From positions 32,001 to 96,000 of the IMG/VR virus record IMGVR_UViG_3300021387_000106: 64,000 bases of DNA; one strand, written 5' to 3'. The stretch comes from a virus. Taxonomy: Duplodnaviria > Caudoviricetes. Position numbers and translations under genes: made by a program. How positions within the stretch are numbered: position 1 is the first letter of the stretch; each line of letters begins with the position of its first letter. Below the pieces are notes generated by a model. The model was not told the origin of the DNA, did no database searches, and saw only the letters and a list, made by a program, of their open reading frames with translations. This document shows, in pieces, positions 16,291-43,908 of the stretch.

Positions 16291-16833
16291 TTATTCCTCC
16301 ACAGTTTCAGAGTTGTTGTAAGGGCTGAAATCGAAGTTGTCCTTGATAGTCCAACCTTCCTGATAGCAGGTCTCTATGTAAGCCAAGCCACCGAGATAGA
16401 ACTGAACCAGTTCCTCGAACGACTGGAAAATCTCGTAGAGAGCCTTTCCTTCTTCGTCCTCAGAAACTTTGTACTTCATGGGGAACGTTACGAGATTAGG
16501 ATATTCCTTGGCAGCATCGTGCTTTGCCTTGAAGTTTTCCTGATTCTCATTAGAGAGCCAAACCTTAACAGTCTTACCCTCGTCGTCACCATGAAGGATA
16601 GTCCACTCATAGCCATTGAGAATCTTTTCATCAGTCGTAGCGTTGATGTCGTCGATGATGGCTTTCTTGATTTCAGCAAAGTCAAGATGTGAACGCTGCT
16701 TTTTGTAAACATACACCTCAACCCACTCTGCATGAGTGTCATCAACCTCTGTAAGGTTGTAACTGATAACAATGCGGCTTGCGTCCTCTTTGAGGTAAGC
16801 AAATTCCGACTTCAAACCAAAAACCTTGTTCAT
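16291..16833 (-). CDS. Putative tail-fibre assembly chaperone
   Basis: Acidic 180 aa; VWLSxENQxNF and CYQEGWxIKD motifs; coupled to the RT stop. Confidence 0.55.
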   Translation of the reverse strand: MNKVFGLKSEFAYLKEDASRIVISYNLTEVDDTHAEWVEVYVYKKQRSHLDFAEIKKAIIDDINATTDEKILNGYEWTILHGDDEGKTVKVWLSNENQENFKAKHDAAKEYPNLVTFPMKYKVSEDEEGKALYEIFQSFEELVQFYLGGLAYIETCYQEGWTIKDNFDFSPYNNSETVEE

Positions 16834-18035
16834 AATCGTTTCTTTTTAAATTGTTTATAAAAAATGAATTTATCTGTAAACTTCGTCAGATCTTGATTGA
16901 ACACTCCTATTTTCAAAATATCTTTCTTTAGGAATAGTTTCCTGCAAAGATTGTATGATTTGGTGTGTTGGAATATACCTAAATACGAATTGATGGAACG
17001 GACAATCTTCCAAGGTTTTGAGAAATCGAACTCCAAAATCTTTTTCTTCATTCTCTCCAGTGAATGATTCGATATGTATGTTCGCCAAGGCTTGATGTAC
17101 GCTCCCAAGAACTCTGTTCCGTTGTGTACCTCCGAAATCTCCAATTTTCCTCTGTGCAATTCCAATCCTAAGTTTTCTCGAAGGAAATCTATTATTTTTG
17201 GAACTAAGCTCAGAAGCCATTCTTTGTCGGAACTCACTACTGCCGCATCGTCCACATAACGACCATAATAACGGCATTTCATTTCTCGCTTCATGAACTG
17301 GTCGAAAACATTCAGGTAAACGTTCGAGAATAACTGACTTGTCAAATTGCCTATTGGTAATCCAAGACCATCTTCCAAGTGCAGCATACTCTTTGCAGGG
17401 TCTAAACCATCCCAATCGGACTTGTCGCCACAAATGACACAATTCTCCTTGGGATTCAGCATAACGATAACTTCCGTAAGCCATATTACAAAGTCCATAT
17501 CCAAAACTTCGCCCCACGTAGTATCTTCGTATTTCGATATAGCGTGAGTTTCCATTTTTCTCAAACTTCCAATAGCTATTTCCAAAAGCCGTTTCCTCAC
17601 GATGTGCATAAAGTAGCCCCTTATATCGAGGTGCATCACATAGCACTCTCTTTGCCAGTTGTGACTTTCCTTTCTGCAAAAATCCGTAATTCTCGCTATT
17701 CCATAATGAGTACCACGATTCTTGATGCAACTGTACGTGTCCTGAATAAAAGTCCTCTCGTATAGCTGATGCGTATAGTTGAAATACAAGTGGTGTACTA
17801 TTCTGTCTCTGAACATTGCAGCGAATATCTCTCGCTTTTTGGGATAATCCACAATGAAACATTTCGATGGAAGAGGTTTGTAATTCCGCGAATACAAATC
17901 CTCGCAAAGTCCTTCCATATTCCGTTTGAGATTCTTTTCCCAAGAGACTACATAACACCTCGCACTCTTGTTTATTTTCGCATCGTAGAACGCTTGATAG
18001 AGGTCGAGTAGAAGCTGTTGCTTTGTAAGTTCCAT
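16830..18035 (-). CDS. DGR reverse transcriptase
   Basis: PKKREIFAAMFRDRIVHH, SCIKNRGTH, LDIRGYF, GLPIGNLTSQLFSNVYLN, RYVDD and FLG motifs. Confidence 0.96.
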   Translation of the reverse strand: MELTKQQLLLDLYQAFYDAKINKSARCYVVSWEKNLKRNMEGLCEDLYSRNYKPLPSKCFIVDYPKKREIFAAMFRDRIVHHLYFNYTHQLYERTFIQDTYSCIKNRGTHYGIARITDFCRKESHNWQRECYVMHLDIRGYFMHIVRKRLLEIAIGSLRKMETHAISKYEDTTWGEVLDMDFVIWLTEVIVMLNPKENCVICGDKSDWDGLDPAKSMLHLEDGLGLPIGNLTSQLFSNVYLNVFDQFMKREMKCRYYGRYVDDAAVVSSDKEWLLSLVPKIIDFLRENLGLELHRGKLEISEVHNGTEFLGAYIKPWRTYISNHSLERMKKKILEFDFSKPWKIVRSINSYLGIFQHTKSYNLCRKLFLKKDILKIGVFNQDLTKFTDKFIFYKQFKKKRL

Positions 18036-18378
18036 AAAAGAAAAGTAAAAAAAGGATGATTAGTACTGTTAGCTGAACCGGGCGCACAGCAAAACCGTTG
18101 TACCGATTGTTGTTGTTCTGCGGATTGACACCACCAGAGTTGAAGTTCAAGTTGCGAGCATTGCGCGCAGAGTTGAACGAAGCAGACCAGTAGTTGCCGT
18201 TCGAACCGCGATTGTTCCAACTCGTACCATTGCCGTTGCCACTACAAGCAAAAAAGAGTTTTCGACCACAACCTTGCACGATAGCCAAAAGGGACCAAAG
18301 GAACCATTCGGCATCTTTGATTTTTCCCGACTCTAAAAGAGTAAGGACGTGTAGCCTATGTAAATCATACTGAACCAT
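16870..18378 (-). CDS. Candidate overlapping ORF (502 aa) through TR and the -1 frame of RT
   Basis: No stop over about 389 codons of overlap with RT; ATG 34 nt after the accessory gene stop. Confidence 0.45.
   Translation of the reverse strand: MVQYDLHRLHVLTLLESGKIKDAEWFLWSLLAIVQGCGRKLFFACSGNGNGTSWNNRGSNGNYWSASFNSARNARNLNFNSGGVNPQNNNNRYNGFAVRPVQLTVLIILFLLFFYGTYKATASTRPLSSVLRCENKQECEVLCSLLGKESQTEYGRTLRGFVFAELQTSSIEMFHCGLSQKARDIRCNVQRQNSTPLVFQLYASAIREDFYSGHVQLHQESWYSLWNSENYGFLQKGKSQLAKRVLCDAPRYKGLLYAHREETAFGNSYWKFEKNGNSRYIEIRRYYVGRSFGYGLCNMAYGSYRYAESQGELCHLWRQVRLGWFRPCKEYAALGRWSWITNRQFDKSVILERLPECFRPVHEARNEMPLLWSLCGRCGSSEFRQRMASELSSKNNRFPSRKLRIGIAQRKIGDFGGTQRNRVLGSVHQALANIHIESFTGENEEKDFGVRFLKTLEDCPFHQFVFRYIPTHQIIQSLQETIPKERYFENRSVQSRSDEVYR
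18073..18259 (-). repeat. DGR template repeat (TR), 187 bp
   Basis: Aligns without gaps to 19113-19299; contains 17 AAY codons; all 17 mismatches are at TR adenines. Confidence 0.96.
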
Positions 18379-18411
18379 CCTTCATTAATTACTATTTTTT
18401 CTAATAATCTG

Positions 18412-18972
18412 TTAGAACAAAGCAATCAAACGCTTGCGAACATCACGCAAAGTATCTAACGCATCCTTGGGCGACAGCTCATCAATAGGCAACGCTATGA
18501 TGTATCTGTAAATATCCGATATGCGCATAAACTGAGGAACTTGCTGCTGAATTTCTCGTTCTTCACGTTTCTTTTTCTTGCTCTCGATAATAGGAAGTGA
18601 TTCTTTCCATTCCTCTTTCATGGCGATTAGTTCTTCAAGAGACTTCTCGTAGAAATCTGAGGGCATTGGAATAATCACGTCAACACGATTGTCATCAACT
18701 GGCAGGAACGTTACGCTACCATCATTGGGGATATACTTCTCAATTGACTTTGCAGGGAATCCCACAAATGCGTCAATTGTTTCATCTTTCATTTTCTTGG
18801 CGATAACCTTCAAAGGATTATTAACCGACTCACCAAATGGATATTTGCTCATTAACCATGCGCTCCAGTCGTGAGCGTGATAGAAGTTACCTTCCTTAAC
18901 GAAGTGAATAATGTTCCACTGAGATTGTTCCTGCCTGGAACTCTCCAAATTTATGATTTCAGATAAATTCAT
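18412..18972 (-). CDS. DGR accessory protein, MutS-N-like (MSL)
   Basis: IHFVKEGNFYHAHDWSAWLM...VGFPAKSIEKY resembles MutS domain I (GDFYE...A...GFPxxxLxxY); occupies the avd position. Confidence 0.75.
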   Translation of the reverse strand: MNLSEIINLESSRQEQSQWNIIHFVKEGNFYHAHDWSAWLMSKYPFGESVNNPLKVIAKKMKDETIDAFVGFPAKSIEKYIPNDGSVTFLPVDDNRVDVIIPMPSDFYEKSLEELIAMKEEWKESLPIIESKKKKREEREIQQQVPQFMRISDIYRYIIALPIDELSPKDALDTLRDVRKRLIALF

Positions 18973-19109: not shown

Positions 19110-20213
19110 TTACTGAACCGGGCGCACAGCAAAACCGTCGTACCGACGGTCGTAGTACTGCGGATTGACACCACCAGAGTAGAAGACCAAGTTGCGAGCA
19201 TTGCGCGCAGAGTAGAACGAAGCAGACCAGTAGACGCCGTACGAACCGCGACTGCCCCAACTCGTACCATTGCCGTAGCCACTACAAGCAAAAAAGAGTA
19301 AGTTACCATTAATCTTCGACTTCAAGTAGATACCAACAACACCATTCACGGTTACACGCTTGTCAGTAGTACCAGCAGCGATTACCGTAGTGCCATCAGC
19401 CTGAACGAAGTCGCAATTATCGAACAACTCTTTAAATTCTTCCGTAGTAGGCATTCGCCAAGGTGCGCCAAGATTAGCGCGTGCAGCATCCTGAGAGGGA
19501 GCCATGTTAGCGGTCAACTTGTTACCTGGTGTGTCACCATAAACTTGTCCGTCATACCAAGGCTCTTCTGCATTAACACCACCCCAATTGTAATCGAATG
19601 AAGAGGTATCTTTCGGATTGTGTCCGTCAGTGTTACCCCAAGAGAAGAATGTTTTCTCGTACTGGAAGGCACTGGCAGCGAACTTGTCAGCCTGAGTGAG
19701 GTCAATATCAGAATCAGCCCAAAGCAAGCCACTTGGCAGACCCATATCTACAAGGTGGTTAGTTGGAGTTTGGCTCTGTTCGAGACCCAACATTCCTACC
19801 ATATTCCAAGCAGAACCATCATACTGGAATTGTACGATAGTCTGAGCCTTGATAAGACCAGGCTGAACAGCTTGACCGTTTACCTTAATGGATTTTGCGC
19901 CAGTGCTATTCACGTTAAGCGTTGCTCCTGCTGCCTGATTAGCATACTTGAAGAATACGCTCACGATACCATTCTTTAGCAGAACGAAGTTGGAAATAGC
20001 GACAGTCTTTGCAATCGTTGTTGCGGCTGTTTCGCAATTACCATATCCGTTACCAGACTTCGCCATATCCTGAACCAACTGCTGTGCAGGGTATTTACCC
20101 GCAGGAGTTCCGTCAGGATTGTACAGCATGACCTCCTGAGTTGCACCAGGTGCAGCCTGAGTGAGACCCGATTGAACCGCTTTCAAAGCGTTAATCATAG
20201 AAATACTTTCCAT
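19110..20213 (-). CDS. DGR target: tail-fibre or receptor-binding protein with a C-terminal CLec-type domain
   Basis: Fibre module ATLNVNSTGAK...YDGSAW; VDMGLPSGLLWA, WRMPTTEEFKEL and YWSAS...GFAVRPV; VR at the C-terminus. Confidence 0.9.
   Translation of the reverse strand: MESISMINALKAVQSGLTQAAPGATQEVMLYNPDGTPAGKYPAQQLVQDMAKSGNGYGNCETAATTIAKTVAISNFVLLKNGIVSVFFKYANQAAGATLNVNSTGAKSIKVNGQAVQPGLIKAQTIVQFQYDGSAWNMVGMLGLEQSQTPTNHLVDMGLPSGLLWADSDIDLTQADKFAASAFQYEKTFFSWGNTDGHNPKDTSSFDYNWGGVNAEEPWYDGQVYGDTPGNKLTANMAPSQDAARANLGAPWRMPTTEEFKELFDNCDFVQADGTTVIAAGTTDKRVTVNGVVGIYLKSKINGNLLFFACSGYGNGTSWGSRGSYGVYWSASFYSARNARNLVFYSGGVNPQYYDRRYDGFAVRPVQ
19113..19299 (-). repeat. DGR variable repeat (VR)
   Basis: 13 of the 17 TR Asn codons are changed (6 Y, 2 V, 2 D, G, S, R). 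Confidence 0.96.
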
Positions 20214-31600: not shown

Positions 31601-32707
31601 GTCTCTGTCATCATGGTCTGGGTCTGAACATTCTGCATACAGACGACATCTATTATCTGAACTTGTATATTTGGTGACATAGCCTTTAATGGTATATCCG
31701 TTAGCTTCCATCGTAATGATGTAGTAAGGAGATTCATCATCACCTGGATAATCAGAAGAACGCTTTGTAAACAGAATAGCCGAAAAATCTATATCAAAGA
31801 GTAATTCAACTCCAATATAGCCACTAACAGAGTTGTACTTGTTCTTAATCTCTACAACGTTTAAGTAGAATTGCTTGTTCAAGTCGGCATAATAGCGGAT
31901 AGGCAAATTCTTGTCAGAACCATAAGCAAACAATCTCGTTACTACTTGTTGGTCTTGTTCTGCCTTACGCTCAATGGCATAAAGTCCTTTGTTCTTTCCG
32001 TATCGGAAAACGTGGTCGACGGGCAAACCCTCACCACCGACAATCAAAGCACGACCTTTAGTAATGAAATTCAGTCCGAAATTATTCTTGATGAACTCCA
32101 ATCCCTGACTTACCGAAATCTTGTCAACTGAGATATTCACATTGAACTTCTCATTATCAACGGCAGCAGTCGGGTTGCTATGGTCTGTACCAAAAGTTTG
32201 CTCCCATAAAGCGATTGCAGCAGCTTTCTTTGTGGGATTGTCGGCATATCGTTGAATGGTTCGGTTATAGTTGGGAGTGATATAAAGCCATTCGCTATTG
32301 TAGCGGTCTGTATTGGCTTGCAGTCTATCTACAAGGTCATCTATGGTTTCCGCATAGAATGAGAAAGTAGGCAGACTGGTATAGTGTATGTTGTTATCGT
32401 ACAGAACAACATCAAGAAAGCGCACCTCAGACAATTCGGCTGAACGTGCGGACATCTTAACATTCTCGTACTTGAAAGCCTCGCCATTGCTACTTTTACG
32501 GGCTTGCTTCAATGCAGAAGGTAAAGTGTAGATACTATAAACGTCATCACGATATATCAGATAATCGCCTATCTCCAGTTCAATAGGTGTAGGCGAAGTA
32601 ATCTTGATTGTAACATATTCCTCGCCCATCCAAATATCGTGATACTCCAAGTCGGTTGCAATGTACTTTACAACTCCACTCTTGTTATATATCGTCCACT
32701 TCTCCAT
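28628..32707 (-). CDS. Tail tip or hub protein (Tal-like)
   Basis: FRYGKNKGLYAIER...VVTRLFAYGSDKNLP; follows the TMP and Dit-like genes. Confidence 0.75.
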   Translation of the reverse strand: MEKWTIYNKSGVVKYIATDLEYHDIWMGEEYVTIKITSPTPIELEIGDYLIYRDDVYSIYTLPSALKQARKSSNGEAFKYENVKMSARSAELSEVRFLDVVLYDNNIHYTSLPTFSFYAETIDDLVDRLQANTDRYNSEWLYITPNYNRTIQRYADNPTKKAAAIALWEQTFGTDHSNPTAAVDNEKFNVNISVDKISVSQGLEFIKNNFGLNFITKGRALIVGGEGLPVDHVFRYGKNKGLYAIERKAEQDQQVVTRLFAYGSDKNLPIRYYADLNKQFYLNVVEIKNKYNSVSGYIGVELLFDIDFSAILFTKRSSDYPGDDESPYYIITMEANGYTIKGYVTKYTSSDNRCRLYAECSDPDHDDRDERSPEQMNGFVAAIKVGDKVIIKSGIDKNYWPTNHIDYAEYGMPNNMAVNTLMLPGFPRYALSELCKTEIVDGITHVYVRKNPETAWGEPLMNIEGEHILRFSNERLRPYITSGNADEIGIKEGNIQFNEENDDNGLQEVYPSIEGLTVGDVFGTSSTERLDEIRSADVIQDNGVFEPEAEIEPFKIKLKDIGFDLEEAVENTGSLTISMKDGYCGARDFEVKNIVKDGNNGWILTLDRYHDDALDLWFPYSSHAAIGEAARADEAYQIRVGDHFVLLDIDISDSSYIWAASVKMLRKSIYWLLNNNYTRFTYLPKIDEIFMARQHERAQQNPLTTISLHDTLKAGMLMLFNDEDLDVEGSVFIDNITIKENGNNGVPTYEVVLRNDKQVGSLQRVQQQVNSLSSYVYNGGGGYSASQINAFIKRYGQEYFLSKLTDDVAAGLITFLNGILVGGGERYGITADGNSTFLDIIFDRIAKSKDARQGFIDGNGIWMDAKSGVIEADGGEFRGFLRIMELIINRLQLMESDYSFTEGDTTERVDFSDNGQRMVLTMHKDHDNDHTPFYPGDILYAKINDLLDHGTYYTCYVRVVSVDLTNNTMKVVPYNGVKPNGDPEVPGAKNFTFLGTEITDDYTEALLEDYTNYPDGYEKIITLTRRGNIADGLENGDDPTSYSDSVKKIQLGRQQSWVLSTTDKRLSFFWNVDKPIIEDNNYALCLGILPDLANLPHDQQGNPLWNVELPSLYVNTIFYDNQHAANYPAKIIKEDRGQWVAPDSSIPQPTIDYNGSQIFDPYHFKTYTMAMWRLYRNNPAFASLSDEQLHEQMMKVLKVDLEISRGWNYGILWECLVDGTTQEPHWGCTHWQAIGGDAIYKGEITTSNGRTFSNGNIDTVLTMRIWFGDEEITDQILTAVDYSIAWKRSTGYNSVTEEFVQQSEDLSWTPTIVGTNKIKVVRSDMGSGWMITYRKVLISCTVSFSYEGQVVTMPADYVF

Positions 32708-34047: not shown

Positions 34048-37000
34048 TTATTGAACTGAAATCTTATCTACACCATTTGCGAACTTGTCAAGACGATTGC
34101 TGATATTCTCTATCATACCATAGATTTTACCTGCCTCACTAAATGTTAGTGCCATTGCAGCTACGTTTCTGTCAATGTTTCGCAAGGTGGTATGTACCGA
34201 AGTGATTTGTTCGATGTACGAAGCCCAATACTCCTGAATGAACATTGTAATAAACATTCTGTTCATAGCAACATCAGCTCTGATAGCATTGACATAGCTT
34301 GCTATGATGTCGGCAGTTTCCTCAGTAATACTCTTAATAGAACCACTAAGTGAACTTTCGTCTCTATTCTTAATAGAGAGTCCAGCCTGATTAACACCAC
34401 GCTCAAATTCAGCCAAGAAAACCTCTCCTGCTTTGATTGCAGCCTCACCTTCACCTCCCTTTCCAAAGAACTTAGCAATAATATTTGTAACTTGCTTTGC
34501 ACTCTTTTCGGGATTATCTATGTCAAAAACGCCACCACTCCATGTTCCATCTGCGTTTTGAGTACCAAATAGCTTGTTCTGCAATTTCTGCATAATAGGC
34601 TCAATAATTGCCAATTGCATCATCTTGCCTGCAAGACTGCGAAGAATATCTTCAACAGCTTTCTTATATGCTTTAGCCATATTAGTACCATTTTCAAATG
34701 CAGTAGCAAGAGCATCAGTAAGTTGTTGCGCCCAACCTTTCATGTCAATGCTCCACAACTCATTTGCGAGATCAAGAGCGAAGTAATGTATTTGGTCGTC
34801 GAGTTCGGCAATTTTCTTTTTGTACTCTTCCATTGCCTCGCCCGAACTATCCTTCTTATCTTCTTCCTCATTGTACATTTGCATATACTTCTCTCTTTCG
34901 GAACGAAGATTGGCGAGTTGTTGTTTATAACCAGAACCCTCACCATTTTGCTGATAGTAGTTATACATGGCTTCCTCGGCAGCAGAATTAAATCCTCTAC
35001 CATATCGACTACCCTTTATTATTGCACCCGCAAGACCTGTCAACTTACTTGCGAAATCAACATTTTCTTGATGGTAGTATTGATTGGAATACAATTGACG
35101 CAAATTTCCTGAGTCATATCCTAACGTGCGCTGTCTTGTTTTCAGTATCAGTTCAGTATTGTTAGCAATACGAGACACTTCTTCCTTCAACTCCTGAATC
35201 CTACGTTCACGGCGCTTGTCATGGAGTTTTGCAAAACCAGTAATCGGAGCTGCAATCATGTCGATGGGTGAAGATATAACGCTACTTACAACACCACCTA
35301 TATTACCAGACATAGCGTTTTGCACAATATTGTTTGCAGGAGCAAGGAAAGAAGTACCAGCCTTGATACCATCACTCAAATCTCCCCAGAAGTTTGCAGC
35401 ACCAGTATTGCCTAATGCCTGGAACATATTAGCAAGAGATTGAGTAGCGTTTACCAATCCGTCAGCCACACCAGTAGCCATTTGCAGAATAGTTGCAAAA
35501 CTGCTAAGACTACCAATTACCTTTGATAGCTTGTTTTGCAAATCAACAAGATGCTTCTTTTCTTTCTCTTCATCTTCTGTAAGACCGCCATTTTTCTCTT
35601 TTGTTTCAAGAGCCTGCAATCTGTCTTTTGCAAATTCATTAGAACCTTTTAATCCACCTTGCATAAAGGCAGTAATGGTATTCTGAACACCAAAGAAAGA
35701 ATCTTCACGGAACTTATCAACAACATCACGAATCTTACGCATTTGTTCTGCGTAGGTCTTTGCGTCAATAGTTCCCTTTTTAACGGCTTTATTCAGAGAG
35801 TTTTCAACAGCTTTGGCAGCATCTTCAATAGCTTTCTTTGTCTGACCGATTGCGCCATTCATAAAGTTTATGTATTGCGCACCCATTTGGAATGTTTTCC
35901 ATTCCTTATCAGAATCAAGTTTAGCCATTGCAGCCTTATACTGTTCCTCAGTAATACCAAGAAGATTGCCGTTTGCATCCTTTTCACCATTCTTACGTTG
36001 GTCTCGCAATCTTGTAATAGCCGCAACCTCACGCTCATATTCGTCATTGATACGTCTAAGTTGTGCTTCATAGGTCATTACACTGCCAGTAACCTTTGCG
36101 AATATCTGAACGTCGTTTTTGTAAACGTCACGCTGCAAATCACGCCATTTCTGATATTCTTCAACAAGTCCTTTGATTTGCTCCTGATACTTCTTAACAG
36201 ATGACTCCAGTACTCCCCACCTTTCAGTATCTTCAAAAAGTTTCTGTATTTCGTCATCAGAAAGATTTATATCAAATTCAAGAGAATATCGCCCTCCTGC
36301 TTCCTCAAAGTCCTTTTCTATTTTTTGACGTGTAGCATCAGCAAGATTCTGAGTATTTCCATTCTTGTATTTTGCACCACTGAGCTGATTAGCCAAGGCA
36401 ACATCACCAGTAGATTCACGAACGGAATTGAATAAATCCCACGAACGGGTAAGATTGTCAAGTTGGATTTTAACCTTGCTTGCGAACTCGTCCATTTTGC
36501 GGTTGGCTTCCTCATAGTCCACGTTGCTGATAGCATCACGCAACTGCTTGATAGCCTCTACCATGTAAGAGTTCTTATGCTTTGGAGTCTTATACAACTT
36601 CATTGCCTCGTTGAGCAATTCAGTGAGATTCTTCTTATAAGTAGGAATGGAATCCAAAGTAAGATTGGTTTTCCAAGTCTTATTGAACTCGTCAAACAAT
36701 GGTTGGAACTGAGCCTGAACTTTCTTCAAAGCACCAGCCTCACCAACTTGTTTCTCGTACTTGTTATACCAGTCGTAGGCATCCTTGTAGAGTTTTGCAA
36801 TCTCACGCAAGCGTTTAGCCTCTTTATCCTCTTGCTTACCCTTGTTGCCTTTAGTCGGGTCTGTTTCAGGATAGCCCTCTTTCTTTAGCCAACTCTTATC
36901 TTCCTGAACAGCCATCAAAGCATCATAGTAAGGCTTGATTTCTTTGTCGATACGACTATAAATAGCTTGCGCACCATCCCAATCACCATTCATGGCTTTC

Positions 37001-40000
37001 TTCTGACCTTCAATAGCCAATTTATCCATAAGAGCGCGTAACTTATCTGCGTTCATCAGCACATCAGTATCAATGTTCAAAGTCATTTTAAGATGTGCTT
37101 GATTGCGTTTAAGATAGGCTTGCTTTTCCTTCAAGTCTTTCTGAACAGCTTGTGCAAATTCATCAAGACTCTTATCAAAGTTAGTCTTTATGGCGATATT
37201 CTCAACAAATACTTGTGATGCACGTTTCTGCCAGTCAGTTTTCAACTTAACGGCATTTAATTTTGCATCCAAACCATCACGATATGCCTCTGCATGATTC
37301 ATTCCAAGTTTCTCCATATCGTAACCCATAGACTCACCCCACTTAATAGTAAGTTCAGAATATTTCTGCAAGGCCTTTTCTGCCTCTTCTGGTGAAGTTG
37401 ATTCCTTGATGGTATTACCAACGAGACCCATGAATTGCTCCATTAATATACGCTTCTGCATTTCGTCGATAATACTACCCTGCATATTCTTAGGAAGGTA
37501 CTCACGCATAGCTTCAAGCATTAATCGAGTTGCATCTTCCATAACACGCGGGTCTGTAATACCTGACATAGAAAGCAGTTTCTTCATGTAGGTACTTATT
37601 GCATAGATAGCACCATCGGGATCATTACTGAACTCGTTCACGATAATGGATGACATTTTCTCTGCCATTTCCTTTGTGTCTGCTTCGAGTTGTTGATATT
37701 GACCTCTAAGTGTTCTGCCAAAACCACCCTGAGTTGCATTTCTAAAGACTTTCCCTGCAAGAGTATCATATATGTCTCTATTCGGAACACCATTCTTAGC
37801 CCAATCTGCAAACAAATGGGAAAGTGCATCATTCTTTGAGCCAAGAGAATATTTCTTCTGCAATTCAGCAATTTTACCGCCTAATTGCTTATCAATTCTA
37901 TCTATGATTTCTTCGTTGATGCCGCTAATATCTTTCTCAGCATCATTCAGTCTCTCGGCATAATCCTTAATATCGGTAGTATAAGAATCTCCAAACAGAC
38001 GAGTAAACCAGTTAGAGCCTGCCACATCAACATCAGCATCAGTTATGACATTCGACATTGCTTCTGTCACATCGTTTGCATGACGAATACTTTCAAGTTT
38101 ACGGACAATTAACTTGAATTGCTCTACCTGATTGTTCATCTTGTCAATATCTACGAGGTCGCCCTCATACATTGGTGACAAATCGGCAAGTTTATTCTTT
38201 AGTTCCTCAATCCTTTGTGTCAAGTCCTCTTTGCTCAGTGCGTCGTCATTGAACTCTACAAGATTGGAAACAACACGTTTGCCTGCAACAAACTTTCCTG
38301 ATGCTTCATCAATACTCTTGATAAAGTTATCATCCTGCAATTCCTTGAATATATCACCAAGTACTTTCAAGTCGGAAGTTGCTTTCTCTGCAAGATCGTG
38401 ACTTGCTTCCTCTGCCTTACTCTTCATTTCGCTAACACGGGCAAACATATCCATAATGACCGTCAATGCAGCCATTGGTAAAGCAATCTTTCCAAAACTC
38501 CATATAGCCGAACCAGCCTTTCGGATTGCATTGCCTAATGTTATCCATGCAACACGCATCTTCGATACTGATGTTACACTTCTAAGTTCCCAAAGCATAA
38601 CAGCTTTTGCGTGACGTTCCTCTGCTGTTGCTGCCTTCATTGCAAGAACGGCTTCAAGGGCTAATTCCTTATTGATTTTACCCAAGGCAACTGCACGGAA
38701 CAATTCTTCCTGAGAGAGTTTCTTGGTACTCAGCAATACGGCAAGGTTACTTGCAGTCAGTTTGCCAGAAGTGGCATACCAGTGAGAATGAGTAGCAAGG
38801 AGTTTCCATTCCTCTGCTGTCAAAGCACGATATTCTTTTGCAAGACGTAGAATGTTGACCTCTTCTTTCTGATGCGCTGCTGCTTGATTCAGAACAGAAA
38901 CGGTATTAGCACCGATAGCTTGATTATACGCAAGAGTGGCTATCTTTGCAACACCTAATACTCCTACGACACCTAACATATCCTTACCATATCTTCCCCA
39001 TTCCTTTGCGCCTGCTGTAAGCGTTTCTGCAATTTTCTTCAATGCAGTACCAACACCACTTTCAGCAATTTCGCCATACATAATATCAAATGCGTCGCGC
39101 AAGTTCTTGAATTTGGCGTTAAGAGCCTGAGACATAACTTCCTGTGCCTCGTAGAACATACCACCTTCATCAGTCAACTGGCGCAAAACTTCCTGAACGT
39201 CCTCATAGGAAATTTCCTTCTTGCGGACTTTCTCACGAACTTGCTTTGTGCTGATACCAAGATTCTCAGAAAGCATCCTCAGTACTGGCACGTTACCCAT
39301 AGCGAACTGTCTCAGAGTGTAGCCGGACAAAGCACCCTCAGAACGAACGTGACCTAATGCCAAAGCGAGTCGGTCAACACTCGTACCAGTTGCAGCCGAA
39401 ATGTCTGCAAGTCGCTTAGTCCAATCGTAAAGTTCCTTGTATTCAAAGCCGTATGCGGTGAGTTGCTTTGACATCTTATCAAGTTCAACTACACCAAAAG
39501 GCGACTTAACAGCCAATGCTTTGATTTGTCCGAACAATTCCGTTGCCTGACCTGCATTTTGCAAGATAGCACCGATAGACAAACGCTGTTGCTCCAACAA
39601 ACCGCCAGTCTCAATAATACTATTAATAAAGGATTGTGCGCCCCAAACGGAAATATACTGCATAGCCAGCATCTTCAAGTCAGAAAGTACCTGAGATTGC
39701 CCCTTCATGGAATCGGTAGCACCTCTAATTGAATTGGCAAGACGTTGCTCTGATTCTGTAAGTTGGTTATTCACATTGGCAGCTACACGTTTATTTATAT
39801 TGAGCTGATGAATTGCATCGTTAGCTTCCTTATTTGCGGCATTGAGACCCATATTGCTTGCAATCTCTTTGCCAGAGGTGCCGTATGAAGAGAAACCAGT
39901 ACGTCCGAAGTTTGCCAATTCCTGCTGAATGGCACGAATCTTATCAATAGCGTTCTGCAAAGGAGTGGTATCAATGCCAGCCTTTGCGAAGTCAACCTTT

Positions 40001-43000
40001 ACGAGATTTAGCTTATCAATCCTATTACCAAGATTCTCAGCAGTACGCTGTGCAGCCTTCATTCTGCTTTCAGCATCCCTCAAATCCTGAGTAAACTGGC
40101 TCAGATTATTCTTATTGTAGAAAGAACTTGATTTGACGTTATTGTGTGCCAAAGCCTCAGAAGCCAACATTCCCTGACGGATTCCGAAATCCTGAACGGT
40201 GGCAGTATTGGAAGTACGACCATTATTGCTATAAATCTCCTTCATCAACTGGCGAACCTTTTCAAGATACTCGATGTATCTGTCAAGACCAGACACGTCA
40301 ACATTAGCCGTAATACCTCTTGCACGAAGGGCTTGCAACTCATTCAGCTTCGCACCAAGTTCATTATACTTAACGTAGGCATCATTTACGCTCTTGATTT
40401 CGTCTTTCAGACGTTTATCATCGGCTCTATCAGAACGTCTATTAGACTGTTGCTGTGCAGTAGTCAAACGTTCCTCAGACTTACGGAGTGCATCGGTATC
40501 ATCACGAAGTGTACGGATATTCTTAATACGCTTCTCAACAAGCACGTTGTTCTGCATATCGGCAGGAGTCATACCTTTCAGCAAGTTCAACTGACCCTGC
40601 AACTTGCTACGTGCATCAGTGAGAATAGTCATATCACGTCCTGGGGTGGCAGTACCGCGACTGATAGCGGAATCCAACTTACGCATTTGCGCCTCAGTAC
40701 GCTCTATTTCCTTCTGAATATCCTTTTGAGCCTGAATAGCCGCTTTAGCCTTTTCTTGCTCTGCCTTTGCGTAGGTTTTCATCTGAGACTCCTGCCAACG
40801 CTCAACATTCTTCTGGTATTCCTGTTCCTGCCTTGCAGCTTCTTTCTTCGACTGGTTGGTAAAACGCTCTACCTCTTTATTATATTCATTCTCTGCCTTG
40901 ATGCGCTCCCTTGTGAAAGCGTTCAAGTCAGTAACCATTTGCTTAGAGTCTTTAAGCGTATGGGTATTGTCGGGATTGATGACGGAAGCATAGCCGTGAC
41001 GAGTACCAAGCAATTGCTCATTCGTCATGGCAGTAAGAATCTCCTGCTTGATAGCGTTCAATCGGTTAATCTGCTGTGCAACGGCTTTCGTCATATCTTC
41101 ATCAGCATACTGCGAAGCGTTGCGCCATGCTCTCATAATACCTTGAATGGCATCCTGAACGTTATAAAGTCCAGTTTCAAGACGTGTGGTATTCCATTGC
41201 TTGATAGAGGCATTGGCATCAGTCAATGACATATCCTTTACCAATTGCCTTGCGGCGGCAGACGTATCGGTAATGCTATGTTTCAACTTGTCGTAATGAG
41301 CATTGAACATAGCAACATCATCGGCTCTACCAGGCAACGGCAACTTCAATGACTGAGGTGTATTCAGGAATCGGATAATATCGGGATTGTCACGATTCTG
41401 CAAGATAAGGCTTATCCATCTGTTGAGCGTTTGCAGATAGTTCATATTGGAATCTTGAACAGCTTGCAGCTTATCCATTCCTGCAACCTTATGACCTTCC
41501 ATATACTTAGAACTACCCTCTGCAAGTTTCATCATGCGCTCAATATGAGCTTGCTCCTTGATAAGTGTCTGAATGTTCAACTCACCAACACGATTGATGG
41601 TTTCCATAGCAGCACCTACACCGCCAAAGCCTTTCGAGCCAGTGGAATTGAACTCTTCAACACGCTCTTTGAGTTTCTGAATGGCAGTCTCAAAGGATTC
41701 GGCAGCACGACGACCAGAAAGAATTTCCTCAACTATCTTTTGGAAATCCTTAACGGCTTTGTCGCTCCACATTTCCTTAGTCTGCTTACCCATCAGCAAC
41801 TCACCATTGAACTTAGTGGCATCGGCTTTCAATGCACCAGGCTTAGAGAGCGTATCAGTCATAGTGGCTACCTTCTGCAACCACTCGTAATACTCTCTGA
41901 GCTTCAATAGTCTTTGCTCCAGTCCGTCATCACGAAGTTTCTGATTGCTCAGTTTCTCGTACTCAACGGCAATCTGAGTCAGAGCCTCATAGACATTCTT
42001 CGTATGGTTCTTTAATACGTCGAGGTTTGCATTAAGGGTGGTTTCGCTACCTTTCTTCTCTGATTGCATCTTCATACCCTCAACACTCTTCGAGAGTTCA
42101 TCAACCTTCTGCTTTGCACTGGCAGCATCACTTTCTACTTTCTTGAATGTCTCAGGTGTGACAATGGCTTTCAGAGACGATTCCATGCGATTTGTCGATT
42201 CCCACAACAAATCCATTGACTTTTTTAGTTGAGCAACTGCCTCATTGAGAGTCTTGATAGTAGGCTCAATAGATGACAAGTCAATGTTGAATGAAGGAAC
42301 TTGCACGTTCTGAACACCAGTTGCCTTCACCATTGCCAGTTTCTCCCATTGCTCTACGACCTGAGTAATCTTCTTACGCAGTTCCTCGAATTGGGCTACC
42401 ATCGTAGCAATAGTTCCTTTATCCTGACCCCATGAGCCGATAGCCATTTTGAGGTTATTGGTGGCAGTAGTCAGTTCTTGCGTAGCCGTAAGGAGTTTCT
42501 GAATAGCTTCTGCATTGGCTTTTGAGGCAGATGCAGCCTTATCTTCGGCAGAAGAAGTCTCATCAACTGCTGCTGCATTCTTTTTACGGGCCTGAGTTTC
42601 TTTCTGAATAGATTCGGTAGTCTGATTTTTCGCACGATTGGCACGTTCCTGACTCTCCGATATTTTTTCGAGATTCTTTGCACCTTCGCCAAGTGATTTC
42701 AAGTTCTTGGTACTCTCCTTAACGGAAGTGCCAGCAGCAGTAAGTACCTCAGAAAGATTCTTAAAGGCAGTGGCGAAGGAATCAATGATAGGACTGCCAG
42801 ACAACCCGGATTTCTTCAATTCATCCATCTGTGACTGAACAGCCTCCATTTCCTTTTTGACCTCAGTGAAAGCCCCCATCTTACCACCTGAGAACGATTC
42901 GCCTGAGCTCATGATGTATGCTGATTTCCTACTCAGCATATCCATTGTGTTAGCGAGTTCAAGGAACTTCGCAATATCCTCACGATTACCTCCCAATATG

Positions 43001-43908
43001 GTATAGAGATTCTTTGTAGCTAACGTGGCAACGGAAATCGAATCAGCGACACGAAGGATAGAAGCGGCAGTAGCTTGTGCCTGCGCTTCCTCGGCTTTCA
43101 AAGCGGCAGCAGCAGTATTCGTAGCAGTAGCCAAAGAATCCTCGCTGACCTTCACATCGGCTTTCTTCTCATTAAGATTGCCAAAGGCTTTAGCCAAAGC
43201 CTGCGCCATCTTGGAAGTTCCTTCATCTACCTTTGCGACATCAGTAGCCATATCCTTAACACCACTTCCAGTACCAAGGCTCTTCAACTGGCTAACCAAG
43301 GAACTGAAAGCATTGACAAGGGCATCTACCTTTGTAGTAAGACCGCCAACCTCACCAGAAAGCGACTCCATACCAGCCTTTGAACCACCGATACGAGCCA
43401 TATTCTCCTGAATGGTGTTACCCATATTCTTGAAGGTGTCCATTGTGGCACGGGCTACATTCTCGCTCAAACCAAATTCCTTCTCCAAGTTGGCTCTTGC
43501 GGTACGATACACCTGACCTAATGCCATAGTGGGACCAGTGACATCAGCCTGACCTTCTTTCAGTCCTGCTTTCTCCCTTGCTTTCTGATAGTTCTCATAG
43601 GCAACAGTCACTTTCTGCAACTGCTTTTCGAGATTGCTATAATCAATATCCTTTGGAATCATGCCAAGACGAACCATTGAGGCCTGCAAATTGTCAATCT
43701 TATGCAGCAACGGCTCTAACATCTTACCATCACCCAACTGCTTCAAAGCATCAAGGAACGTCTTTAAGTCGTTGGATTTCTCCAATTGCACCTTTAGACT
43801 GATAGAGTTGTCGGCCATCTTAGCAAGAGCCTTTACCTCTTCCAGTATCTTGTTGTATTCCTCGTTGGCACGTTTGATACCAACTTCAAACATGAGAGTG
43901 TTAGCCAT
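34048..43908 (-). CDS. Tape measure protein (3286 aa)
   Basis: Long helical protein with a TMP core (AVKSPFGVVELDKMSKQLTAYGF...LADISAATG); follows the chaperones. Confidence 0.92.
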   Translation of the reverse strand: MANTLMFEVGIKRANEEYNKILEEVKALAKMADNSISLKVQLEKSNDLKTFLDALKQLGDGKMLEPLLHKIDNLQASMVRLGMIPKDIDYSNLEKQLQKVTVAYENYQKAREKAGLKEGQADVTGPTMALGQVYRTARANLEKEFGLSENVARATMDTFKNMGNTIQENMARIGGSKAGMESLSGEVGGLTTKVDALVNAFSSLVSQLKSLGTGSGVKDMATDVAKVDEGTSKMAQALAKAFGNLNEKKADVKVSEDSLATATNTAAAALKAEEAQAQATAASILRVADSISVATLATKNLYTILGGNREDIAKFLELANTMDMLSRKSAYIMSSGESFSGGKMGAFTEVKKEMEAVQSQMDELKKSGLSGSPIIDSFATAFKNLSEVLTAAGTSVKESTKNLKSLGEGAKNLEKISESQERANRAKNQTTESIQKETQARKKNAAAVDETSSAEDKAASASKANAEAIQKLLTATQELTTATNNLKMAIGSWGQDKGTIATMVAQFEELRKKITQVVEQWEKLAMVKATGVQNVQVPSFNIDLSSIEPTIKTLNEAVAQLKKSMDLLWESTNRMESSLKAIVTPETFKKVESDAASAKQKVDELSKSVEGMKMQSEKKGSETTLNANLDVLKNHTKNVYEALTQIAVEYEKLSNQKLRDDGLEQRLLKLREYYEWLQKVATMTDTLSKPGALKADATKFNGELLMGKQTKEMWSDKAVKDFQKIVEEILSGRRAAESFETAIQKLKERVEEFNSTGSKGFGGVGAAMETINRVGELNIQTLIKEQAHIERMMKLAEGSSKYMEGHKVAGMDKLQAVQDSNMNYLQTLNRWISLILQNRDNPDIIRFLNTPQSLKLPLPGRADDVAMFNAHYDKLKHSITDTSAAARQLVKDMSLTDANASIKQWNTTRLETGLYNVQDAIQGIMRAWRNASQYADEDMTKAVAQQINRLNAIKQEILTAMTNEQLLGTRHGYASVINPDNTHTLKDSKQMVTDLNAFTRERIKAENEYNKEVERFTNQSKKEAARQEQEYQKNVERWQESQMKTYAKAEQEKAKAAIQAQKDIQKEIERTEAQMRKLDSAISRGTATPGRDMTILTDARSKLQGQLNLLKGMTPADMQNNVLVEKRIKNIRTLRDDTDALRKSEERLTTAQQQSNRRSDRADDKRLKDEIKSVNDAYVKYNELGAKLNELQALRARGITANVDVSGLDRYIEYLEKVRQLMKEIYSNNGRTSNTATVQDFGIRQGMLASEALAHNNVKSSSFYNKNNLSQFTQDLRDAESRMKAAQRTAENLGNRIDKLNLVKVDFAKAGIDTTPLQNAIDKIRAIQQELANFGRTGFSSYGTSGKEIASNMGLNAANKEANDAIHQLNINKRVAANVNNQLTESEQRLANSIRGATDSMKGQSQVLSDLKMLAMQYISVWGAQSFINSIIETGGLLEQQRLSIGAILQNAGQATELFGQIKALAVKSPFGVVELDKMSKQLTAYGFEYKELYDWTKRLADISAATGTSVDRLALALGHVRSEGALSGYTLRQFAMGNVPVLRMLSENLGISTKQVREKVRKKEISYEDVQEVLRQLTDEGGMFYEAQEVMSQALNAKFKNLRDAFDIMYGEIAESGVGTALKKIAETLTAGAKEWGRYGKDMLGVVGVLGVAKIATLAYNQAIGANTVSVLNQAAAHQKEEVNILRLAKEYRALTAEEWKLLATHSHWYATSGKLTASNLAVLLSTKKLSQEELFRAVALGKINKELALEAVLAMKAATAEERHAKAVMLWELRSVTSVSKMRVAWITLGNAIRKAGSAIWSFGKIALPMAALTVIMDMFARVSEMKSKAEEASHDLAEKATSDLKVLGDIFKELQDDNFIKSIDEASGKFVAGKRVVSNLVEFNDDALSKEDLTQRIEELKNKLADLSPMYEGDLVDIDKMNNQVEQFKLIVRKLESIRHANDVTEAMSNVITDADVDVAGSNWFTRLFGDSYTTDIKDYAERLNDAEKDISGINEEIIDRIDKQLGGKIAELQKKYSLGSKNDALSHLFADWAKNGVPNRDIYDTLAGKVFRNATQGGFGRTLRGQYQQLEADTKEMAEKMSSIIVNEFSNDPDGAIYAISTYMKKLLSMSGITDPRVMEDATRLMLEAMREYLPKNMQGSIIDEMQKRILMEQFMGLVGNTIKESTSPEEAEKALQKYSELTIKWGESMGYDMEKLGMNHAEAYRDGLDAKLNAVKLKTDWQKRASQVFVENIAIKTNFDKSLDEFAQAVQKDLKEKQAYLKRNQAHLKMTLNIDTDVLMNADKLRALMDKLAIEGQKKAMNGDWDGAQAIYSRIDKEIKPYYDALMAVQEDKSWLKKEGYPETDPTKGNKGKQEDKEAKRLREIAKLYKDAYDWYNKYEKQVGEAGALKKVQAQFQPLFDEFNKTWKTNLTLDSIPTYKKNLTELLNEAMKLYKTPKHKNSYMVEAIKQLRDAISNVDYEEANRKMDEFASKVKIQLDNLTRSWDLFNSVRESTGDVALANQLSGAKYKNGNTQNLADATRQKIEKDFEEAGGRYSLEFDINLSDDEIQKLFEDTERWGVLESSVKKYQEQIKGLVEEYQKWRDLQRDVYKNDVQIFAKVTGSVMTYEAQLRRINDEYEREVAAITRLRDQRKNGEKDANGNLLGITEEQYKAAMAKLDSDKEWKTFQMGAQYINFMNGAIGQTKKAIEDAAKAVENSLNKAVKKGTIDAKTYAEQMRKIRDVVDKFREDSFFGVQNTITAFMQGGLKGSNEFAKDRLQALETKEKNGGLTEDEEKEKKHLVDLQNKLSKVIGSLSSFATILQMATGVADGLVNATQSLANMFQALGNTGAANFWGDLSDGIKAGTSFLAPANNIVQNAMSGNIGGVVSSVISSPIDMIAAPITGFAKLHDKRRERRIQELKEEVSRIANNTELILKTRQRTLGYDSGNLRQLYSNQYYHQENVDFASKLTGLAGAIIKGSRYGRGFNSAAEEAMYNYYQQNGEGSGYKQQLANLRSEREKYMQMYNEEEDKKDSSGEAMEEYKKKIAELDDQIHYFALDLANELWSIDMKGWAQQLTDALATAFENGTNMAKAYKKAVEDILRSLAGKMMQLAIIEPIMQKLQNKLFGTQNADGTWSGGVFDIDNPEKSAKQVTNIIAKFFGKGGEGEAAIKAGEVFLAEFERGVNQAGLSIKNRDESSLSGSIKSITEETADIIASYVNAIRADVAMNRMFITMFIQEYWASYIEQITSVHTTLRNIDRNVAAMALTFSEAGKIYGMIENISNRLDKFANGVDKISVQ

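Follow-up and report, generated by a model that had tools for sequence, protein, structure and literature searches.

Leader peptides, upstream open reading frames (ORFs) and operon genes joined by ATGA overlaps are ORFs whose translation, and not whose product, matters; to our knowledge, those described span a few to a few dozen codons and lie between genes. Overprinted genes, such as the overlaps of phiX174 and MS2 (PMC3494269, PMC8227390), are same-strand, alternative-frame ORFs laid over an older gene, and the abstract of one preprint describes co-directional overlaps that exceed 60 bp as nearly absent in prokaryotes (10.1101/724807). Among diversity-generating retroelements (DGRs), the template repeat (TR) within the avd-TR-Sp DGR RNA of Bordetella phage BPP-1 is stated to be untranslated (Wu et al. 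2018, PMC5758913), and the DGR reverse transcriptase (RT) of the Quimbyvirus/LoVEphage gut phages is divided among three overlapping frames (Benler et al. 2021, Microbiome 9:78, PMC8008677). That split RT was also the nearest case in full-text literature searches for an alternative-frame ORF over a DGR RT, which found none described. Here we analysed a 64,000-nucleotide stretch (the window; positions 32,001 to 96,000 of IMG/VR record IMGVR_UViG_3300021387_000106) of a phage genome that is complete at 109.8 kb and bears direct terminal repeats. Its DGR carries a second, 502-codon ORF that passes through TR and then overlaps the intact RT gene for ~1,160 nt; among same-strand overlaps of prokaryotic viruses this is a very long one. 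Stops are purged from this frame in 31 related lineages, and its residues show no measurable constraint. Judged from these sequences, it seems only slightly short of an even chance that the alternative frame is translated and that selection acts on the uninterrupted passage of ribosomes, not on the protein made.

The alternative ORF (16870..18378, minus strand), which an earlier note on this DNA had reported in the -1 frame of RT, is real. Its offset to RT is 343 nt, and each of its codons is made of the third base of one RT codon and the first two bases of the next. It starts where the earlier note placed it, 33 nt (then given as 34) past the accessory-gene stop, translates TR in the same frame as the variable repeat (VR), and ends 13 codons (40 nt) ahead of the RT stop; the open run over RT counts 387 codons, not about 389. 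A stop arises in this frame where the third base of an RT codon is T and the next codon starts with AA, AG or GA. T occupies 27% of the third positions of the window RT and is used freely before AC (7/14), AT (12/38), GG (8/17), GC (5/12) and GT (8/19), in contrast to AA (0/50), AG (0/21) and GA (0/47). The stop-prone junctions, previously put at about 100 with no T before the last, number 127, and T stands at three of them, all within RT codons 387–395. As demonstrated by 20,000 synonymous-codon shuffles of RT, which gave a mean of 29.2 and a minimum of 16 stops against 0 observed in 387 codons, the open frame lies far outside what chance would give: the longest open run in any shuffle was 172 codons, and none of the 20,000 came close to the observed 387. 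Additionally, no other same-strand alternative-frame ORF in the window approaches this length, the longest open runs being 72 codons (-1 frame) and 130 codons (+1 frame), and the off-frame stop counts in the other ~40 long ORFs are as expected.

The same open frame was found among related DGR RTs. Specifically, 240 related RT loci were taken from viral, genome and metagenome collections, near-duplicates (≥97% nucleotide identity) were removed, the -1-frame stops of each locus were compared with its own synonymous shuffles, and the frame was called open when it was uninterrupted over at least 360 RT codons. By this measure, 31 distinct lineages, whose RTs are 58–81% identical to that of the window, keep the frame open; their synonymous sites are close to saturation, and 7–32 stops are expected in each (~620 in total across the 31). 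In the open lineages, T precedes AA at 0.2%, AG at 0.0% and GA at 0.1% of 3,212 junctions, versus 15%, 14% and 29%, respectively, in 42 non-open relatives, and T before AC, AT, GG, GC and GT is alike in the two groups (23–42%). Since only three stop trinucleotides in one frame are purged, and only translation reads the sequence in this way, the pattern argues for selection on translation of the frame and supports the selection that the earlier note had proposed. A long alternative-frame ORF conserved beyond chance, as expected of an overprinted gene, is present. Its product, used as query in a protein search, returned 37 clusters (P0001-P0037; 479–646 aa) with full-length matches and no Pfam domain. 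Public gene calls sometimes give the alternative ORF instead of RT, as these 37 clusters show, and protein-based DGR searches could miss elements in which the alternative ORF alone was called; in the window's own lineage RT is also called, in a 90% cluster with 55 members.

It is extremely improbable that the open frame reflects chance, base composition, codon-pair bias, or an arrangement in which the real gene lies in the other frame. An open -1 frame is possible by chance in GC-rich relatives, where few stops are expected (~4 in L080, 1.9 in L133 and 4.6 in L124), and in most of the family's RTs the -1 stop count falls slightly below that of the shuffles (z -1 to -3). Against this, the frame also holds in AT-rich lineages with 27–32 expected stops, where the purge is likewise seen, and the Pfam and PHROG reverse-transcriptase matches fall on RT, with none on the alternative frame. 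The shuffles, the other ORFs of the window and the trinucleotide-specific purge rule out the chance or codon-bias reading. On the RT tree, non-open sisters that carry chance-level numbers of stops (such as L011, L013, L002, L012, L014 and L016-L020) are scattered among the open lineages. Because repeated removal of 20–30 stops is improbable, an old origin of the open frame followed by repeated loss appears more likely. One such loss looks recent: L192 has three alternative-frame stops from RT codon 261 on, before codon 378, versus ~15 expected. As a speculation, the frame was perhaps first open by chance in a GC-rich ancestor, since GC-rich relatives such as L080 expect so few stops.

Next, constraint on the alternative protein itself was considered. 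The third position of an RT codon is the first position of an alternative codon, so constraint on alternative residues would lower synonymous change in RT. The reduction of synonymous variation anticipated for open-frame RTs was not seen relative to non-open relatives: identity at four-fold sites is the same in open-open as in non-open pairs at matched RT amino-acid identity, and in an enlarged set it is slightly higher in open pairs, roughly as expected from the exclusion of T at a third of the sites. A sliding-window scan of wobble conservation along RT, in which an alternative-frame domain was sought, revealed no region with extra conservation. The fraction of RT second-position changes that are synonymous in the alternative frame is 0.78 in open pairs and 0.78–0.81 in non-open pairs. 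Neither reduced synonymous variation of the older frame nor purifying selection on the new protein is thus found. The alternative product matches no family in Pfam or PHROGs, is rich in Cys, Trp and Arg, as is typical of out-of-frame sequence, and showed no fold in an AlphaFold2 prediction with a 35-sequence alignment (mean pLDDT 27.6, pTM 0.15). Two weaker signals are nonetheless present. At stop-prone junctions, the open lineages prefer G over A and C (0.46–0.55 vs 0.33–0.35 expected), which gives Glu or Gly in place of Lys, Gln or Arg; these junctions are also more conserved (excess identity 0.27 vs 0.16), and the mean net charge of the product is +3, compared with +18 for the same frame in non-open relatives and +16 for the window's own product. 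Together, these data indicate that stops are strongly selected against, that composition is weakly selected and that residue identity is under no measurable selection.

These data bear on a true overprinted gene with a functional protein, for example a DGR or virion accessory factor, whose alternative first positions would tolerate almost any residue, the second and third being already fixed by RT. Overprinted viral proteins are reportedly often disordered and fast-evolving (Rancurel 2009; Sabath 2012, PMC3494269). Like the known overprinted genes, the ORF is a clade-restricted, conserved, same-strand frame on an older gene; in contrast, those genes usually reduce synonymous change in the older frame and show constraint on the new protein. 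We consider a functional protein somewhat unlikely. The length and the start codon conserved in both architectures of the frame (with and without TR), the full-length matches in all 37 clusters, the preference for G and the higher conservation at risky junctions, the shift of net charge toward neutral, and the lack of a recognised Avd-type gene in the cassette would suit such a protein. The unreduced synonymous variation with no local constraint, the alternative-synonymous fraction equal to that of broken-frame relatives, the pLDDT, the out-of-frame composition, and the repeated loss of the frame in sisters, which then carry chance-level stops, speak against it, as does the absence of the N-terminal TR peptide and hydrophobic spacer from the lineages described next.

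In six lineages (L022, L194, L196, L205, L233 and L237), a stop or a frame change parts TR from the RT-overlapping frame, which still remains open for 307–409 codons (for L233 and L237, up to the end of the contig). For most of these TR-separated (type ii) lineages, the first codon of the alternative frame is an ATG placed 7 nt ahead of that of RT (ATGAGGCATG), and in L022 the first alternative ATG is at -16. Fusion to TR is optional and dispensable for the open frame. The reading preferred by the earlier note, a membrane-anchored protein carrying the TR peptide, is not supported by these observations: beyond the unreduced RT synonymous variation, the lack of purifying selection on alternative residues and the missing fold, these six frames are open without TR or the hydrophobic spacer, and the conserved 'MVQ' leader is one arm of a predicted RNA helix that also occurs in non-open relatives. 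The transmembrane-like stretch of that note is present as a hydrophobic stretch; it is encoded by the pyrimidine-rich spacer ahead of the RT ATG, and this spacer is equally T-rich in non-open relatives. The features of the cassette are as follows.

19110..20213, minus strand: target gene, with VR at its 3' end.
19113..19299, minus strand: VR, in the 3' end of the target gene.
18412..18972, minus strand: accessory gene, 186 aa; its stop codon (18412..18414) lies 33 nt upstream of the alternative ATG.
18359..18392, minus strand: leader arm of a predicted long-range RNA helix, holding the alternative AUG (18376..18378) within GGAUGG; from the predicted fold and relatives.
18073..18259, minus strand: TR; its core mismatches to VR are all at TR adenines.
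18044..18074, minus strand: spacer arm of the predicted leader-spacer helix (…UCAUCC…), directly 3' of TR; from the predicted fold and compensatory changes in L007, L011, L173 and L204.
16870..18378, minus strand: alternative ORF, 502 codons, made up of the leader, TR (read in the frame of VR), the spacer and a 387-codon stretch over RT in its -1 frame; from the ORF list, the shuffles and the 31 lineages.
16830..18035, minus strand: DGR RT, 401 aa, uninterrupted and in one frame; matches Pfam RVT_1 (E 3.8e-10) and PHROG 1423 (E 1e-82).
16291..16833, minus strand: next gene downstream, weakly matching DUF4376; it starts in an ATGA overlap with the RT stop, in the alternative frame and 36 nt past the alternative stop.

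Both ends of the alternative frame adjoin neighbouring genes, as in a coupled operon ORF that starts near the previous stop and ends near, or overlapping, the next start. In the TR-including lineages, the alternative ATG lies 8–65 nt (mostly 15–44 nt) past the accessory-gene stop, and across the open lineages the distance from the alternative stop to the DUF4376 ATG ranges from -4 to +87 nt, the window having 36 nt. Two lineages with a longer RT, L218 and L219, have the DUF4376 ATG at RT codon 426 or 440; their alternative frame stays free of stops as far as this ATG, with which it overlaps as ATGA. By homology, a DUF4376 gene follows RT on the same strand in all 30 testable open loci, compared with 19/40 non-open loci; a cruder, ORF-based test for any co-directional downstream gene, confused by spurious antisense ORFs, gave no significant difference (19/27 open vs 23/40 non-open). 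The RT frame runs 9–90 codons into DUF4376 in 18/30 open loci versus 2/19 non-open loci with DUF4376; in those 18 open loci with a displaced RT stop, the alternative frame alone terminates near the next start, and in the remaining non-open loci with DUF4376 the RT stop abuts its ATG. The idea that DUF4376 always lies in the alternative frame, as a former fusion or readthrough product would, was rejected, since it lies in the alternative frame in 8/30 open loci, in the +1 frame in 21/30 and in the RT frame in 1/30. As a separate observation, RT runs 29–89 codons into DUF4376 in L005, L007, L073, L085, L086, L172, L173, L177, L182, L196, L205, L219 and L222; in several lineages this second same-strand overlap is longer than synonymous shuffles of DUF4376 give (P 0.0–0.1), and a stop recurs ~37 codons in.

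Taken as a conduit for ribosomes, the frame would work as follows. Ribosomes would leave the accessory gene and initiate at the leader AUG or, in some relatives, at an AUG 7 or 16 nt ahead of the RT AUG. Their -1-frame path would take them over the entire RT core, after TR in those lineages whose frame includes it, and would end just ahead of the next late gene, DUF4376. Such passage would keep the transcript covered by ribosomes, and so protect it from polarity or decay, and would also keep the late and lysis genes downstream translationally coupled. The RT gene, nested in a different frame with a pyrimidine-rich region before its start, could then be expressed sparingly and independently; the sequence upstream of the leader AUG is A-rich (42% A) and that upstream of the RT AUG is T-rich (41% T). 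The proposal thus joins the conserved, frame-specific purge of stops, the unconstrained alternative residues and the operon-like ends with a putative translation of the frame, a putative anti-polarity or coupling benefit and a presumably weak translation of RT. The shift of net charge toward neutral and the preference for G at risky junctions would fit a product that is translated but harmless. The alternative raised in the earlier note, that translation shields the transcript or controls the availability of TR RNA, fits the evidence better than the membrane protein and may hold. That a ~500-codon ORF is kept across a phage clade purely as a ribosome track, its product being irrelevant and the late operon being read through a nested, under-translated RT, is possible, though somewhat short of an even chance. 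Like leader peptides, upstream ORFs and ATGA-overlapped operon genes, the ORF has ends that adjoin its neighbours (ATGA in L218 and L219) and an unconstrained product; it differs in running ~500 codons over an entire enzyme gene. The arrangement belongs with overlapping genes and translational coupling, and the mechanism would be new if ribosome passage is indeed what is selected.

Several points weigh against the conduit. The links of the open frame to DUF4376 and to where RT stops are suggestive, but phylogeny and shared synteny confound both. Of the close non-open relatives, at least seven keep DUF4376 beside RT (L012, L014, L018, L176, L209, L210 and L220), and L192 has alternative-frame stops yet keeps DUF4376 and an extended RT frame, so that the conduit is dispensable. 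Where 47–87 nt separate the alternative stop from the next ATG, the distance is long for termination-reinitiation. The preference for G, the conservation of junctions and the charge shift could come from weak selection on a real product. Finally, the leader AUG sits inside a conserved predicted helix, which would hinder initiation once the RNA has folded. The case is an unusually clean one of frame-specific selection, in which an overlap of ~1,160 nt is kept while synonymous sites turn over and the sole visible constraint is the lack of stops. If ribosome passage is selected, this would be a new kind of long ORF, translated without coding for a needed protein, and a new phage solution to embedding a low-dosage enzyme in a late operon, in which enzyme dosage is separated from operon continuity.

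The leader helix raises a further explanation, self-regulation of the DGR. The leader (…AAGGAUGGUUCAG…) is predicted, in both minimum-free-energy (MFE) and centroid folds, to pair with the spacer just 3' of TR (…CUGA..AUCCUU…), and 23 open and 9 non-open relatives share the predicted helix, with compensatory changes. The leader's 'MVQ…HR..VL' pattern is conserved at the nucleotide level in loci where the leader is in no ORF, which its place in an arm of the predicted helix explains. Translation of the alternative frame might melt this helix, which would clamp TR, and occlude the RT start, so that the transcript would alternate between serving as mRNA and serving as template, with RT dosage kept low; the open frame would be needed lest ribosomes terminate or reinitiate inside RT. 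We regard this as unlikely. The position of the leader AUG within a helix predicted by both folds, the compensatory changes and the overlap of the type ii alternative AUG with the RT start region at -7 would be as expected. A short ORF would suffice for such a switch, however, which leaves 387 stop-free codons unexplained; non-open relatives share the helix and the AUG with a TR ORF that ends near the RT start; and neither the tracking of the DUF4376 ATG by the alternative stop nor the constant presence of DUF4376 in open loci is accounted for. Both the leader (ATGGTTCAG) and the 3' end of TR/VR (CCGGTTCAG) contain the heptamer GGTTCAG.

The view that TR is generally translated in this DGR family was rejected: over 157 loci its frame relative to RT is random (61/55/41), and the leader is conserved outside ORFs. 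As in BPP-1, the order is target-VR, accessory gene, TR and RT, the TR/VR differences are adenine-specific, and structured RNA flanks TR; the present DGR differs in that TR lies inside a long frame apparently selected for translation, in its spacer of ~37 nt and in having no recognised Avd. The textbook view of an untranslated DGR TR (Wu 2018, PMC5758913) is thereby challenged, and, if the conduit is real, translation of the DGR template RNA would be a side effect or a switch. In many non-open relatives (L012, L016, L024, L030, L031, L066, L092, L099 and others) TR is in frame with RT with no stop between; the read-through ORFs span 467–557 codons and appear as database proteins with PF00078 (P0038, P0041-P0049). 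Given spacers of 24–60 nt, they may be chance products.

Frameshifting was weighed as in Quimbyvirus. Both are Bacteroidales phage DGRs with more than one open frame over the RT region, and the behaviour of ribosomes at the RT gene is a question common to both. There, the split RT needs frameshifts or separate pieces; here, RT is intact and a second, non-RT frame is open. RT homology is not spread over two or three frames: one 401-aa ORF and a single tblastn segment are found in the window, as in all open lineages, and only the variant L003 is split. In a gag-pol-like scheme, alternative-frame ribosomes would shift +1 into RT, for example at the spacer T-run, giving a TR-peptide-RT fusion, or RT-frame ribosomes would shift -1. 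This is very unlikely. It would draw on the three overlapping frames of the related gut-phage RTs, for which frameshifting was proposed (Benler 2021, PMC8008677), on a T7 run in the spacer with the RT frame open for 8 codons before its ATG, and on the near-identical contig L003, where a 1-nt deletion fuses the alternative N-part to the RT C-part. In opposition, every open lineage has an uninterrupted, one-frame RT with an ATG of its own, the length of the spacer T-run varies among lineages, a shift site needs the alternative frame open on one side and not along the whole of RT, and the near-identical L165-L168 lack the deletion. The L003 contig (IMGVR_UViG_3300028805_000231, 98.7% identical) carries its deletion at L003:3404 (window 17631), in a CC at RT codon ~135, which creates one 516-codon ORF of alternative N-part and RT C-part and cuts the normal RT short; the contig may carry a defective allele, or the deletion may be an error of assembly.

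The cassette is a DGR. RT, with its RVT_1 and PHROG 1423 matches, stands beside TR, whose end is 37 nt upstream of the RT ATG, and the TR/VR differences bear the adenine-specific signature of DGR mutagenesis, the core changes being from A to T, G or C and non-A mismatches being confined to the flanks. On the minus strand, the order is target-VR, accessory gene, TR, RT, the DUF4376 gene, small membrane proteins and an amidase-like gene, the last two names coming from reading the translations and not from a search. The accessory gene has no Pfam or PHROG match, and comparison of the loci by homology places its homologues upstream of TR/RT in nearly all relatives. No Avd-type gene was recognised in the cassette, blastn of the cassette against phage GenBank sequences gave no match, and scans for sigma-70 promoters, terminators and the Bacteroidetes -7 motif (TANNTTTG) were at or below chance level and hence uninformative. 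In the target protein, where a DGR would be expected to have a C-type-lectin-like domain with VR at its C-terminus, the Fib_succ_major and Lcl_C matches are weak and below Pfam thresholds. Related sequences come from rumen and gut Bacteroidales/Prevotella metagenomes. Elsewhere in the window, a 3,286-codon ORF (34048-43908, minus strand) has 344 -1-frame stops against a shuffle expectation of 391 (z -4.3).

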